DNA of 64,000 nucleotides, from assembly GCA_951406725.2 (NCBI GenBank), contig OX597832.1:56420001-56484000 (forward strand), read 5' to 3'. The stretch is from Octopus vulgaris. Lineage: Eukaryota. The notes under the pieces were generated by a model. It searched no databases. It saw only the letters and a list, made by a program, of their open reading frames with translations, and was not told where the DNA came from. The position numbers and the translations under genes are program-made. Shown here one piece after another: positions 2,543 through 47,750 of the stretch; the stretch's first letter is position 1, and each line of letters opens with the position of its first letter.

Positions 2543-2868
2543 GAGTGGCTGTGGTATGTAGCTTGCTTACCAACCACATGGTTCTGTGTTCATGTCCACT
2601 GCGTGGCACCTTGGGCAAGTGTCTTCTACTCTAGCCAAAGCCTTGTAAGTGGACTTGTTAGACGGAAACTGGAAATGTGACCTCGTGTGTACCGTTGGCG
2701 ATTTTTTTCCCTCTGTCTTCCCTTCTCTGGATCTTTCCTTCTATGTTTCCGACGAAGAGCTCCGCTCGAAACGTTAAACCCTCCTACTTTCCTGAGCGTC
2801 CAATAATACTATATTTGTTCCACGTCCTCGCGTTGTTTTTTTTTGTGCTTTCTTGTTTGGATTAACTT

Positions 2869-20552: not shown

Positions 20553-20599
<47 letters not shown>

Positions 20600-20601
<2 letters not shown>

Positions 20602-21165
20602 CTTTACTGCCCACAAGGGGCTAAACATAGAGGGGACAAACAAGGACAGACTAACGGATTAAGTTGATTACATTGACCTCAGTGCATAACTGGTACTTAA
20701 TTTATCGACCCCAAAAGGATGAAAGGCAAAGTCGACCTCAGGGGAATTTGAACTCAGAATGTAAAGACAGACGATATACCTATTTCTTTACTACCCACAA
20801 GGGGCTAAACACAGAGGGGACAAACAAGGACAGACAAACGGACCACCACTGCGTAACTGGTACTTAATTCATCGACCCCGAAAGGATGAAAGGCAAAGTC
20901 GACCTCAGGTGAATTTGAACTCAGAATGTAAAGACAGACGATATACCTATTTCTTTACTACCCACAAGGGGCTAAACACAGAGGGGACAAACAAGGACAG
21001 ACAAACAGACCACCACTGCATAACTGGTACTTAATTTATCGACCCCAAAAGGATGAAAGGCAAAGTCGACCTCAGCGGAATTTGAACTCACAACATAACG
21101 GCAGCCGAAATACCGCTAAGCATTTCGCTCGGCATGCTAACGTTTTTGCCAGCTCGCTGCCTTAT
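20600..21165 (-). mobile_element. SINE family B with triplicated ~170-180-bp 3' unit
   Basis: CCCACAAGGGGCTAAAC...GACCCC(G/A)AAAGGATGAAAGGCAAAGTCGACCTC occurs three times, with a single head at ~21110-21165. Confidence 0.85.
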
Positions 21166-22050
21166 CCAAAATATATAAATAAGCCAAAAAAGTAGTCAGA
21201 CCGGGTTGTGATTTGGTTTAATGTTTAGCTTTATGGTTGGCTGATTTCTTTAACAGATGAAATATTTAGTATCTTCCATAAAACCTGTACTGAAAGACTC
21301 TCATGTAGATTAAACACCAGAGTGAAGAAGTATGATATGAGATAGCTGTAGTAAACAGTATTTCTTGTGGTTCTTTATGTTCTGAGTTCAAATCCTGTCG
21401 AAGTCAATTTCACTTTTCATCCTTTCGGGATTGATGAAATAAAGTAGTGGGGACAATGTAATTGACTTGTCCTCCCCCGTCAAAACTTACTGGTCTTGAT
21501 CCCTGCAATGAACCAGTGTCCTGTTTAGGGAGAATGTTGTAATCTCAGTAACCAACCTTAGGGGTTCTAGGGCTCAAGAAAAAAAAATATATATATATAT
21601 AAGAAATCTGGTACATAGAGATGTTTGCGTTAATGACCACTAGTCCAAGTCATTCCTTGTTATGAAGGCACATGGCTTAAAGTTTAGGGTATTCAGGGCC
21701 CATGGCCGTAAGGTCATGAGTTTGATTCTTGGAGACACAATGTGCCCTTGAGCAAGACACTTCATTTCTTGTTGCTGCCGTCCACCCAGCTGTCAAAAAT
21801 GAGTAGTACTCTCTTTCACCTGGTACTTTACCAAAGGAACATGCCTCTCTCTCTTATTCACTCGGTGCTTTACTGGATGTACATGGCTGTTGTCCTTAGT
21901 CCTGTTGCCCTTCACTAAACATTTAGGGGCAGTTTGTTTTCACTCTTAGATGCCATGCATCTACCTCTTTCTACCTCTTACAGCACTTACACCTGATACA
22001 AACATTACCAAAGGTTGTGTGAGCCTTGTCATTACTATCATCCATTTACC

Positions 22051-22280
22051 TATTTCTTTACTACCCACAAGGGGCTAAACACAGAGAGGACAAACAAGGA
22101 CAGACAAATGGATTAAGTCGATTATATCGACCCCAGTGCGTAACTGGTACTTATTTAATTGACCCCGAAAGGATGAAAGGCAAAGTTGGCCTCGGCAGAA
22201 TTTGAACTCAGAACGTAGCGGCAGACGAAATACTGCGAAGCATTTCGCCCGGCGTGGTAACATTTCTGCCAGCTTGCCGC
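22051..22280 (-). mobile_element. SINE family B, full length, with 12-bp TSD
   Basis: CATCCATTTACC at 22039-22050 and 22281-22292. Confidence 0.85.
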
Positions 22281-22347
22281 CATCCATTTACCGCTGGGGA
22301 ACAGCCGATGACTACAGACTGTACATCATCTTTAATGACGAAATATA

Positions 22348-25303: not shown

Positions 25304-25472
25304 TTGTCAAAATATTTTCGGCGATGCAGTACGAAGTTTTGTCAGTAAACAGGTCGCGGTCTCAAAGCGACGAAAATATTTTGACAAATTAAATTTAAAT
25401 GTTGAAGTGAATCTAACGGTTTTTGTGTATTTCTTAAATGGCTTATAAACACATTCCACGCTGCAATTATTT
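25304..25472 (+). mobile_element. Element carrying a G3:C8-type hammerhead fold (25338-25388; G5 mutated) with inverted 5' stub
   Basis: TTTGTCA-GTAAACA-G-GTCGC-(9 nt)-GCGAC-GAAA-ATAT-TT-TGACAAA. Homologous to 30008-30210 (-). Confidence 0.65.
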
Positions 25473-27012: not shown

Positions 27013-29301
27013 TATCTAAACTTTCTAAATGTTTGACCTAAAAAAACTAACTAAAATATTCATTCCCATTATTTTCAACATTGTCATCTTTAGAGTACAT
27101 TTTCCCATGTTCACATGGTTTTCATAAAATCTGTCAGTGCAAATTTTCTGTCTGTCTGTCTGTCTTTCTCTCTCAGTCTCTCTCCTGCTCTCTTCATCTT
27201 TCTCTGTGTATCTCTCTGTCGTTCTCTCTGGCCAGGTAACCATGTACCTCCCCTACAGCAAGACACCTGTTTCTGCTCCCCCCACCCTGTCTCACTATAA
27301 CCTTTCATCATCTGACACAAGACCACCTCCTCCTCCAATGCCCCCTCTCCTCTCAAAGGAACTTTGTCCTGCAAGTTACTTGGTGACCCTGCTAATGCAG
27401 GTGCCACTTAAAAAGCATCCAGTCTGCACTGTAAACTGGTTGGCATTTGTAAGGGCATCCAACTGTAAAAACCTTGCCGAAACTGACCTCACTTGTGCTA
27501 GTGCCTTGAAAAAAGAACTCAGCCCACTCTGTTGGGTTGTTGGTGTTAGGAAGGGCATCCAGCCGTAGAAACTCTGCCAAAACAGATACAGAAGTCTGGT
27601 GCAGTTTCCTTCCTGGTGCCATTTCTCTGTCAAACCGTCCAACCCATGCCAGCATGGAAAGCGGATGTTAAATGATGATGATGATGATGATTGGAAATTA
27701 AGGATACTCATTTACTACTATCACATGACGTCATGACAAGATACGCATACTCATGCACACACACACACACACATGTATATGTGTGTGTGCATGTGTGTAT
27801 ATGCATGCACATGCATGTGTGCGTGCATGTATGTGCACATGTGTGTGCACGTGCATGTCCACGTGTGCATGCATGTGTGTGTATATGCATGCATGTGTGT
27901 GCATGTGCATGTGTGTGCATGCACACATGTATGTGTCTGACGGGCTTCTTTCAGTTTCCATCCACCAAATCCACTCACAAAGCTTTGGTCAGCCTGGGGT
28001 CTATAATAGAATACTGTTGCCCAAGGTGCCACACAGTGGGACTGAACCCAAACCCATGCAGTTGGGAAACAACCTTCTCAACCACACAGGTATACTTAAG
28101 CCTATTGTCTTCAACATTGCACATCTCTTGTTATCATTAAGTATATTATGATAAGTATACCACCAAATAAACATAACACTACACCATGATAAGACATGCT
28201 GCGATAAAAGATAAACTGTAATATGAAGGCACAGCTGTGACTGTGGGGTAGGTAGTCTGTTTCCCAACCACATGGTTCCAGGTTCTGTCCCACTGCGTGG
28301 CACCTTGGGCAAGTGTCTTCAACTATAGCCTTATGTGTGGGTTTGGTAGATGGGAACTGAAAGAAGCACATCATATATGTGATTGAGTCTACATTTGTCC
28401 ACCACCACTGCTTGACAACTGGTGTTGGTGTGTTTACATCCCCGTAATTTAACAGTTTGGCAAAAGACACTGATTGAATAAGTAACAGGCTTAAACAAGA
28501 AAAATAAGTACTAGGGTTAATTCGCTTGACTAAAAGCTCTTTGAGACAGTGCCCCAGCATGGCCACAGTCCAATGACTGAAACATGCAAAAGATAACAGA
28601 TAAAAGAATGATGTGATAAATCAATAACAGGAGAATAAAATAATTACCTAATTTATTTACACCGCTGTTAATTATATTTCGGGCAAATGAGGAAAATATT
28701 TGAAATATATTAATTCAATAATCAAATCTAGGTTAGCTAAAAAACAGTGGAGGAATATCTTGTTAATACAGTGTAAAAAATGTATGTCACACACAAACCA
28801 CTTTCAGACATGGGTTAACAACACCGGTGAACAATGGACTTCATAAGCAACATAACTCAATCGACTTACATAATCTGTGTTGGCTGACAGAAGCCAGCAC
28901 AACAACAGAAAGGTGTTTGTGTTTAACTTGTGTAAATGACAATGGCATGACTTTAAGTCTGTACGCTTCTAGGTGACTTTTAAAGTTTTAACCTTCAATG
29001 ATAATATCACTGGCGAAAGATATTGTTTGTTTTGTCTTTATTTTTTGTTTTGTTTTGTTTTGTTGTCTTCATTTTTATTTTATTTATATCATTTAAAAAC
29101 TTCTTTTTTTTTAAAAAAAAAAAAAGGTGTTATTTAACATTGCAATATAGTTTCATTCTCCTTTTTTTAAAATCTTATTTACGTCATTTCAAAAAAAAAC
29201 TTTTTTGAAAAAAAGGTGTTATTTAACATTCCAATATTGTTTCATTCCCCCCTTTTTTAAAAATCTTATTTATGTCATTTAAAAAAAAAACACTTTATAA
29301 G

Positions 29302-29478
29302 CACAGGAGTGGGTGTGTGGTAAGTAGCTTGCTAACCAACCACATGGTTCCGGGTTCAGTCCCACTGCATGATACCTTGGGCAAGTGTCTTCTACTATAG
29401 CCTTGGACCGACCAAAGCCTTGTGAGTGGATTTAGTTGACGGAAACTGAAAGAAGCCCATCGTATATATGTATATATG

Positions 29479-29509
<31 letters not shown>

Positions 29510-29702
29510 CTGTCTTTGTCCCCCAACATCACTTGACAACCGATGGTGGTGTGTTTACATCCCCGTAACTTAGTGGTTCGGCAAAAGAGACCGATAGAAT
29601 AAGTACTAGGCTTACAAAGAATAAGTCCTGGGGTCGATTTGCTCAACTAAAGGTGGTGCTCCAGCATGGCTGCAGTCAAATGACTGAAACAAGTAAAAGA
29701 GT
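29302..29702 (+). mobile_element. SINE family A, full length
   Basis: Head to GAAACAAGTAAAAGAG tail. Further copies at ~28225-28600, 35312-35716, 49600-49920, 61531-61976 and 63352-63725. Confidence 0.9.
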
Positions 29703-30147
29703 AAAAAAGAGAGAGTATGTCCCCCTTTTAATTTATTAAATCTTTTACCATTTAGCCATTTACCTGTTTCAGGTGTTAGACTATGGCCATGCTGGGGCAC
29801 TGTGTTGAAGAATTTTAGTCAAAGAAATCAATCTGGTACTTATTATTTCGTTGTTAAGACTGGTACTTATTCTATCGATATCTTTTGCCAAACTGCTAAG
29901 TTACAGGAATGTAAATACACCAACACTGGTTGCCAAGCAACGGTGACTGACAAACAGACACAAGGATACACACACTTATATATATATGTATAAATATATA
30001 TATATTTATTACGGAGATGTACTTGCATAGCAAGTGACTTGATCTGAGATCGTGTGCTGGAACGAAAACAATTGCAGCATGGAAGGTGTTTATAAGCCAT
30101 TTAAAAAAACACAAAACCGTTAGATTCACTGCAACATTTAAATTTAA

Positions 30148-30198
30148 TTTGTCAAAATATTTTCGGCGCTTTCAGACCGCAACCTGTTCACTGACAAA
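30148..30198 (-). ncRNA. Minimal type-I hammerhead ribozyme motif with G3:C8 core (element ~30008-30210)
   Basis: Minus strand TTTGTCA-GTGAACA-GGTTGC-GGTCTGAAA-GCGCC-GAAA-ATAT-TT-TGACAAA: 7-bp stem I, palindromic ATAT loop; element flanked by (TA)n. Confidence 0.65.
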
Positions 30199-30216
30199 GC
30201 TTCGTGCTGTGTTTGT

Positions 30217-43537: not shown

Positions 43538-43717
43538 CTGAGCAACACCTTTTATATTTTCTGCTGCTTTCAAATCATATTACTCTATCTCTAATATTTG
43601 AGTACTCTTTTTTCCTCCTTGTTTCACATCTATGTGCTTACACTGGTGTGTGTGTGTGTGTGTGTATATATATATCAAGTGGCCAGCATGGAAAAAATAA
43701 CCTTCAAAGGTAATAAT

Positions 43718-43997
43718 TATTAAAATTATAAATTAGGGTATATACGAGATACCAACATGCTGAAAATAGCAGCCATGATCCGACTCTAAAACCACTTTAA
43801 GTTTTCATATAGCAACATGGAAAGAAGACAAAGCGACAAGATGAAACTAGTAAAATTATCCAGTAATTTTTTTACTAGTTTTATCGTCTCTTTGTCTTCT
43901 CTCCATGTTGCTATATGAAAATTTAAGGTGGTTTTAGAGTCGGATCATGGCTGCTATTTTCAGCATGGTGGTATCTCGTAAATACCCTAATTTATAA

Positions 43998-44005
<8 letters not shown>
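43718..44005. repeat. Long inverted repeat (foldback/MITE-like), ~140-bp arms
   Basis: TATTAAAATTATAAATTAGGGTA... mirrored by ...TACCCTAATTTATAATTTTAATA; centre ~43860; abuts (TA)n. Confidence 0.9.
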
Positions 44006-44048
<43 letters not shown>

Positions 44049-46400: not shown

Positions 46401-47351
46401 TATACACAGGGAACCTCCACTTGGTAGCCAGGATAATTTTATATCCGAGAGGGTATTTGGTTGCTCTTAGACGAAGCGCCTTCCCTCAAGTCTCATATAT
46501 TTGTTTAACTCCATCGCCATTTCTTTATTGATTGGCTTCCTCACCAATATCCCATCGTCGGTCGCCTATTTGGCCGAATCGTTAGAGCGTTCGGACAAAA
46601 ATACCTTGCTGTATTTGCTCCGGCTCTTTACTTCGCGAGTTCAAATTCCGCCGAGGTTAATTTTCGCCTTTCGCCCTTTCGGGATTGGTAAAAATAAGGT
46701 ACCAGTCATGTACTGGGGTCGATAATATCGACCTAACTCTTCCTATAAACTGCTGACCTTGTACCTAAACCAGCTGCTGCTACTACAACTACTACTACTA
46801 CTACTACTTAATATTTAAGCTTGTTCTCTGTCTCCTCAAAAATTGCGAAAAGTAACATTTGAAATTAAATATTTATATATATATATTTTTTTTTATGACA
46901 AACTTAGCTTTTTATCGGCGAATTCCGTCTCTCGGTACACATTCGTCAAATCGTTTATTGAAGACTACCGTACTTATTAGAAAGTTATTAAGGACGATGG
47001 ACGGAAAATAGCGGGCGAAAAAAAAAATTAAAAGCCCAAATACTTTGCGATATGTAATTATGTACCTTCGAGTTCAACTCCTACAGAAAGCTATCTTCGT
47101 GTTTCTTCTTACATCACTCAATATAATCGATGATGCGCCGCCATTAAAATATTTGACCTTCTACTTTCGCTGAAAAACAAGGAAAAGTCATCAATTTTTA
47201 AAGAAGGTTTTCGGCTATCGACGTGGGAGAGAGTCAGATGAAATCCATTGGGTTTCTCTTCCATTCCGACATCAACTTTACTTATTATTCTTCTTGTGCT
47301 AATATTAAAAAATCATCATCGTCATTATCATCATTATTATTATTATTATTA

Positions 47352-47750
47352 AGGCGGCGAACTGTCAGAGTCGTTAGCACGCCGGGTGAAATGCTTAGCG
47401 GTGTTTCGTCTGCCGCTACGTTCTGAGTTCAAATTGCGCCGAGGTCGACTTTGCCTTTCATCCTTTCGTGGTCGGTTATATAAGTACCAGTTACGCACTG
47501 GGGTCGATATAATTGACTTAATCCATTTGTCTGTCCTTGTTTGTCCCCTCTGTGTTTAGCCCCTTGTGGGTAGCAAAGAAATAGGTATTTCGTCTGCCGC
47601 TACGTTCTGAGTCCAAATTGTACCGAGGTCGACTTTGCCTTTCATCCTTTCAGGGTCGATAAATTAAGTACCAGTTACGCACTGGGATCGATATAATCGA
47701 CTAGCCCCCTTCCCCCAAAATTTTCAAGACCTTGTGCCAAGAGTAGAAAT
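47352..47750 (+). mobile_element. SINE family B with duplicated 3' unit
   Basis: Junction ...GCAAAGAAATA-GGTATTTCGTCTGCCGC at ~47582. Confidence 0.85.

Follow-up and report, generated by a model that had tools for sequence, protein, structure and literature searches.

Minimal type I hammerhead motifs occur in the pseudo-long terminal repeats (pseudo-LTRs, pLTRs) of metazoan Penelope-like elements, mostly as solitary or inverted copies. They feature an extra nucleotide after A9, a G10.1-C11.1 pair, a palindromic 15-16 segment and a U-H cleavage site, depend on a partner for helix III formation and cleave slowly (Cervera and De la Pena 2014, PMC4209133). Cleavage by the Penelope hammerhead of Anolis requires the element's own protein (Frangieh 2024, PMC11167929). 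The 2'-OH of nucleotide 8 is established as the general acid for hammerheads with a C3:G8 core pair, and partial rescue has been obtained in engineered G3:C8 variants. The 3:8 pair is known from structure and rescue mutants, while its natural support in the literature searched is limited to U3:A8, the only 3:8 covariation reported, with examples in Perreault 2011 (PMC3088659) and in Schistosoma Cercyon elements, and also the only one named in the sections of Cervera and De la Pena 2014 considered here. In this study, we analyzed a 64,000-nucleotide stretch of the Octopus vulgaris genome (contig OX597832.1 of assembly GCA_951406725.2, positions 56,420,001 to 56,484,000; hereafter the window), which contains two pLTR insertions of a Penelope-like element whose hammerhead-like motif carries the fully inverted pair, G3:C8. 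Based on sequence comparisons, we propose that this motif is a homolog of the minimal type I hammerhead of sister elements with the 3:8 pair flipped, and that it likely self-cleaves slowly after U17, probably as a dimer and with the help of the element protein, a reading to which we assign a probability of roughly 60%.

Two motif copies with an inverted core pair

The first copy of the motif lies on the minus strand at positions 30148..30198. Its 7-bp stem I (5' strand 30198-30192, 3' strand 30154-30148) encloses the core GUGAACA (positions 3-9; 30191-30185, with G3 at 30191 and C8 at 30186), an extra G at 30184, a stem II of five pairs (30183-30179/30169-30165), the sequence GAAA starting at 30164, the palindrome AAUAUU spanning 15.1-16.1 and U17 at 30155. 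By hammerhead numbering, the predicted cleavage site is located 3' of U17, between 30155 and 30154. Stem II comprises G-C, a U.C mismatch, a U.G wobble, G-C and C-G. The second copy, on the plus strand at 25338..25388, has a 5-bp stem II free of defects and a core (GUAAACA) that has decayed by a G5A change; the two copies share 90% identity over 152 nt. An initial annotation of the window had described G3 and C8 in both copies, pairing an intact core with an imperfect stem II at 30148 and a perfect stem II with G5A at 25338, and re-reading of both motifs confirmed each of these points.

Apart from the inverted pair, the motif closely follows the architecture of the hammerheads described in PMC4209133, with which it shares its position in the pLTR, the type I topology and the predominance of solitary or inverted copies. 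U4, G5, A6, A9, G12, A13, A14, A15.1-U16.1 and H17 are all present in the first copy, a member of what we term subfamily A, and in the younger subfamily B; the second copy differs by G5A. The extra nucleotide after A9, the G10.1-C11.1 pair and the palindromic 15.1-16.1 segment are also retained (AAUAUU in subfamilies A and B, AAUU in an older group E), as is the type I junction between helix I and helix II, with a 7-bp stem I and a 5-bp stem II in subfamilies A and B. The octopus motif differs in having G as the extra nucleotide, where the PMC4209133 consensus has H, and G3:C8 as the core pair, where all cores in the supplementary alignment of that report begin with C or U. Since the core reads GUGANCA and not literally CUGANGA (C3, G8), we rank the motif as a variant rather than as a member of the canonical-core class.

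Like the natural U3:A8 hammerheads, the octopus motif shows a compensatory change at the 3:8 pair. However, U3:A8 retains the pyrimidine-purine order and requires two transitions, whereas G3:C8 inverts the order by two transversions. The same core state has been engineered in the Anolis Poseidon hammerhead, where C3G alone and G8C alone abolish cleavage and the double mutant restores it partly, in a protein-assisted reaction (PMC11167929; review PMC8495972). The initial annotation's statement that engineered 3:8 swaps partly rescue activity thus agrees with published work and extends to a Penelope hammerhead. Unlike those laboratory constructs, the octopus state occurs naturally, in a lineage of thousands of copies in which it has become fixed. 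In the literature searched, G3:C8 was found only in engineered and not in natural form, so its novelty is provisional, with an earlier record possible outside that search. A string search of 11 supplements of Perreault 2011 (PMC3088659) returned 0 G3:C8 matches, although gapped alignments could defeat such a search, and a term search of PMC11014351 gave 0 matches.

We also considered that the motif might merely resemble a hammerhead by chance within an AT-rich repeat. Rfam indeed listed no hammerhead family among the 150 matches given of 187 for the window, and an Rfam scan of 161 nt from an intact copy yielded no hammerhead family match. However, a descriptor in which the 3:8 pair could be of any Watson-Crick type, composed after the motif had been seen, matched the real window once (at the first copy) and none of 100 locally shuffled windows. 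Given that fully canonical hammerheads occupy the homologous position in sister and outgroup elements, fortuitous resemblance is already refuted, and we consider it highly improbable.

The inverted pair as a family-wide state

A pattern for subfamily A in which positions 3 and 8 were left free matched the genome 4118 times, with G3:C8 in 3715 matches, both positions changed in only 10 and C3:G8 in none; these numbers include both arms of inverted insertions and are not insertion counts. The wider scaffold shared with related families gave 10795 matches, comprising 5719 with G3:C8:A9 and 807 with the fully canonical CUGANGA core. When 100 copies were instead chosen by the sequence 3' of the motif, 74 of the 77 readable cores were GUGAACA, the remaining 23 copies being truncated or unreadable.

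The old group E, subfamily A and the young subfamily B all retain G3:C8 despite differences among them in N7, loop II, the stem III palindrome and the distal part of stem I. Subfamily B differs in loop II, its core and stems being retained. Group E, which is older and more decayed, combines G3:C8 with an N7 that is mostly C, yet another loop II, a distal stem I of its own and the shorter palindrome AAUU; among the copies of this group listed by downstream sequence alone, those in which the motif survives have C8 and mostly G3, as judged by eye. The same core string is carried by contigs from sequencing runs labelled as four different organisms, and the descriptor found no motif in three loci (L126, L127 and L130). 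G3:C8 is therefore a family-wide state that has outlasted three subfamily generations, and the suggestion that a whole repeat family uses the inverted pair holds for the genome-wide majority of copies.

Natural covariation of the 3:8 pair

In sister Penelope families, the homologous start codon is likewise preceded by this scaffold, here with C3:G8 and with compensatory changes in all three stems (I to III). One of them, family C, shows 56% identity in the reverse transcriptase (RT) and has intact open reading frames (ORFs) of 1312 aa; another element (L157) combines C3:G8 with a proximal stem I and a stem II 5' strand that are the same as in subfamilies A and B. Of 12 relatives from metagenomes, 10 were uninformative and only two have a motif that is readable in the homologous position: outgroup L188 (50% identity) bears a textbook minimal hammerhead with a canonical core, and outgroup L186 has U3:A8 together with C9. 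In an alignment of 22 motifs, the 3:8 pair is GC in 12, CG in 8 and UA in 1, with no unpaired combination and 1 gap (the misaligned L188 row). The 3:8 covariation score (0.437) exceeded 500/500 shuffles and all slid controls, but most of the 22 rows were picked by patterns fixing positions 3 and 8 and the rows are related, so that this result (0/500) is not a probability.

In a midpoint-rooted RT tree, subfamilies A and B form one clade (100/99) with family C as sister at weak support (80/83), and outgroups L186 and L188 fall outside; group E has no protein in the tree. The simplest reading is that C3:G8 changed to G3:C8 once, on the branch leading to A, B and E. Because the sister families have C3:G8 at the homologous place and the outgroups have C3:G8 or U3:A8, the sequence comparison identifies the inverted state as natural covariation of the 3:8 pair rather than decay.

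The parent Penelope-like element

Both window copies are short pLTR insertions of a Penelope-like element whose ORF contains RT and GIY-YIG domains, with the motif positioned 54 nt upstream of the ORF start. The insertion bearing the first copy (30008..30209, minus strand) belongs to subfamily A, lies beside an (AT)n tract, is 89% identical to the pLTR of a better-preserved element (L115), ends at the distal of two 3' end sites (the 'tail') and includes the first ~31 codons of the ORF (30008..30100, minus strand; start codon 30100-30098). The second insertion (25323..25472, plus strand) ends at the proximal 3' end site, is flanked by a ~11-bp target-site duplication and is preceded by an inverted 20-nt 5' piece (25304..25323, minus strand). 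This piece is a typical Penelope 5' inversion, which rules out a DNA-transposon origin of the inverted ends at 25304-25388.

A search of the 2.8-Gb genome with a 201-nt query returned 2591 candidates, of which 40 were scored. The 30 loci examined contain dispersed ~210-bp units with AT-rich target duplications and, frequently, inverted 5' pieces. Copies are dispersed or arranged head-to-head, and the only same-strand pairs seen are the two pLTRs of full elements, ~4.3 kb apart; the tandem dimers named in the initial annotation are thus not borne out. A short tandem retrozyme or satellite is likewise ruled out, as the copies are dispersed with target-site duplications. Two units located 3.5 kb apart on one strand (L039/L040) enclose no long ORF and look like a local duplication.

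Copies extending upstream (110 pattern matches) pointed to ORF remnants, with the unit preceding the RT/GIY-YIG frame in one locus (L070) and following it in three (L063, L065, L066), and better-preserved relatives were found by protein search. In L115, motifs at 2442 and 6703 flank the ORF, within units that are identical at 201/202 positions and ~4.3 kb apart. A second relative, L111, has an open frame of 1025 aa with a Pfam match to GIY-YIG (E 1.8e-5). The Pfam search gave no RT family match for the element ORF, and RT was assigned by a YxDD motif and by homologs named reverse transcriptase domain; one close homolog carries the label Octopus vulgaris. The 3' ends of copies fall at two ORF-internal sites, 2563-2569 (36/100 copies) and 2621-2627 (55/100) in L115 numbering, which resemble the pair of sites at which RT starts ('tail') in Frangieh 2024 (PMC11167929).

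With its C-terminal GIY-YIG domain, preceding CX3CxxC linker and pLTRs, and with the inverted 5' copies, tail and AT-rich, (TA)n-like targets seen among its copies, the element resembles those of the Neptune/Nematis type (Craig 2021, PMC8557442). We thus classify the parent as an endonuclease-bearing (EN+) Penelope-like element and, as the tree contains no named reference elements, place it only tentatively with this type by its features. The initial annotation's identification of a Penelope minimal hammerhead proved correct in that the motif sits in the pLTR of an RT/GIY-YIG element.

Two further Penelope-like sequences were noted. A remnant of a different element, with GIY-YIG and a Cys linker, adjoins a copy of the studied family at L060:261-1001 (minus strand). 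A metagenomic relative, L190:3-4898 (plus strand), has an open frame that, by eye, spans at least 1632 aa, in which long Thr/Ala/Ser repeats are found along with a protease-like stretch ahead of the RT.

Is the motif maintained for cleavage?

A number of observations weigh against a ribozyme that is selected to cut. The flip occurred as one evolutionary event and, given how the aligned rows were picked, the covariation statistics overstate independence. A sublineage with the unpaired combination G3:G8 has spread, accounting for 159/4118 subfamily-A matches, many of them on one contig (C16), and for 13/48 upstream-extended copies. The young family C has the core CUGAUGC (A9C) in near-identical copies with the intact 1312-aa ORF (L118:8533-8582, minus strand; also L117 and L119), and other repeats in the genome have A6U or U4C cores. 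The 5' ends of copies peak 55-58 nt upstream of the predicted cut (40/100) and not at the cut itself, within 3 nt of which only 4/100 copies end (P about 0.2). Finally, cleavage was found to be dispensable for insertion in vitro by Frangieh 2024 (PMC11167929). Given the A9C, A6U and U4C cores, core constraint in the Penelope hammerheads of this genome looks loose, and, together with the spread of G3:G8 and the missing cut-site peak, these cores indicate that cleavage may be only weakly selected, leaving substantial weight to a dead or non-catalytic motif.

One such possibility is that the master element drifted to G3:C8 via an unpaired intermediate and that this state has since hitchhiked because cleavage no longer matters. 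The G3:G8 sublineage, whose copies have separate insertion junctions, was evidently mobile; the deviant cores are found in other abundant families; 5' ends do not accumulate at the cut site; and Penelope clades without hammerhead thrive (Craig 2021, PMC8557442). However, the other core positions and G10.1-C11.1 hardly vary across 50% protein divergence despite turnover of loops and stems, both independent 3:8 changes seen (G:C and U:A) are Watson-Crick, and G3:C8 survived all three subfamily generations. We therefore regard a dead relic as unlikely, if still worth serious consideration.

Alternatively, the fold may be kept for a non-cutting job, such as dimerizing element RNAs or binding the element protein, with the 3:8 pair selected as structure. 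The retention of palindromes and stems with compensatory changes would fit such a role, as would the apparent origin of most copies from uncut RNA, and non-cleavage roles were left open by Cervera and De la Pena (PMC4209133). However, published descriptions assign the 3:8 pair to the active conformation, so its retention points to catalysis, and the general base G12 does not vary among the representatives. We judge a purely structural role to be distinctly unlikely.

Several observations concern the variant lineages themselves. Both upstream-extended copies and members of the G3:G8 sublineage cluster strongly on contig C16, at about 0.6-16 Mb and 43-56 Mb. Copies related to family C have A9, and C9 is shared by outgroup L186. 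The A6U repeat, another minimal-hammerhead family, has the core CUGUNGA in 11/23 motifs of its scaffold in the examined loci (L006:1229, plus strand; L010:1316, plus strand; L030:1411, minus strand; L021, L032, L038 and L125). A third minimal-hammerhead family, with the U4C core CCGACGA, is represented by 7 motifs in the examined loci, including window positions 2749-2780 (plus strand), L034:803 and L064:7872, beside canonical CUGACGA copies.

A model for slow cleavage and its implications

According to the self-cleavage model that we favor, two motifs would pair via the AAUAUU palindrome to build helix III, and G3 would pair with C8 in the active fold, thereby positioning the 2'-OH of nucleotide 8 as the general acid. 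In the ground state, G3 may also wobble-pair with U17, as in the predicted ground-state fold, which would slow cleavage. U17 is present in 110/111 examined G3:C8 copies matching a strict pattern, although few independent lineages are represented. This preference fits the ground-state trap argument of Kalweit 2013, according to which C17 would trap G3 and G3-C8 is less active with C17 ('data not shown' there).

By cutting 54 nt ahead of the ORF start, the motif would free the element RNA of a ~58-nt 5' leader, but most new insertions would be copied from uncut RNA. As the 5' ends of copies cluster 55-58 nt upstream of the cut, often after a G (12/17 copies ending at the modal 5' site), the pattern suggests reverse transcription of an uncut, capped RNA. 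The sequence just 5' of the unit, where these ends peak (L115:2400-2422), resembles a branch point with a 3' splice site and is also initiator-like. A spliced-intron reading of this boundary was rejected, as no exon 1 is shared among 66 flanks (not deduplicated), and a capped start appears to fit the boundary better.

It is tempting to speculate that the lineage passed through its three subfamily generations, with thousands of insertions, using an active natural G3:C8 hammerhead that is new in nature, and that together with the C3:G8, U3:A8, A9C, A6U and U4C forms it constitutes a natural mutagenesis series, although we put the chances of this broader view at somewhat less than even. If it is correct, protein-assisted Penelope hammerheads tolerate cores missed by standard descriptors, and elements called hammerhead-less may have hammerheads after all. 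Since both CUGANGA descriptors and Rfam miss the G3:C8 form, the number of ribozymes in animal genomes may have been underestimated. Fixation of a complete inversion in a mobile lineage would confirm by evolution that the pair matters and not the bases. It also bears on whether there is any selection for cutting by Penelope hammerheads, a question that is directly testable because natural C3:G8, G3:C8 and G3:G8 versions exist on nearly the same scaffold.

Other repeats in the window

The window also harbors a long inverted repeat at 43713-44010, with 125-nt arms that are 94% complementary and separated by a 48-nt spacer, possibly a miniature inverted-repeat transposable element (MITE) or a fold-back insertion. 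In addition, SINE-like (short interspersed nuclear element-like) dispersed repeats are abundant (20590-21173, 22044-22281, 47341-47702, 839-1229 and 29298-29720), one of which is a 167-bp tandem repeat of 2.4 copies.
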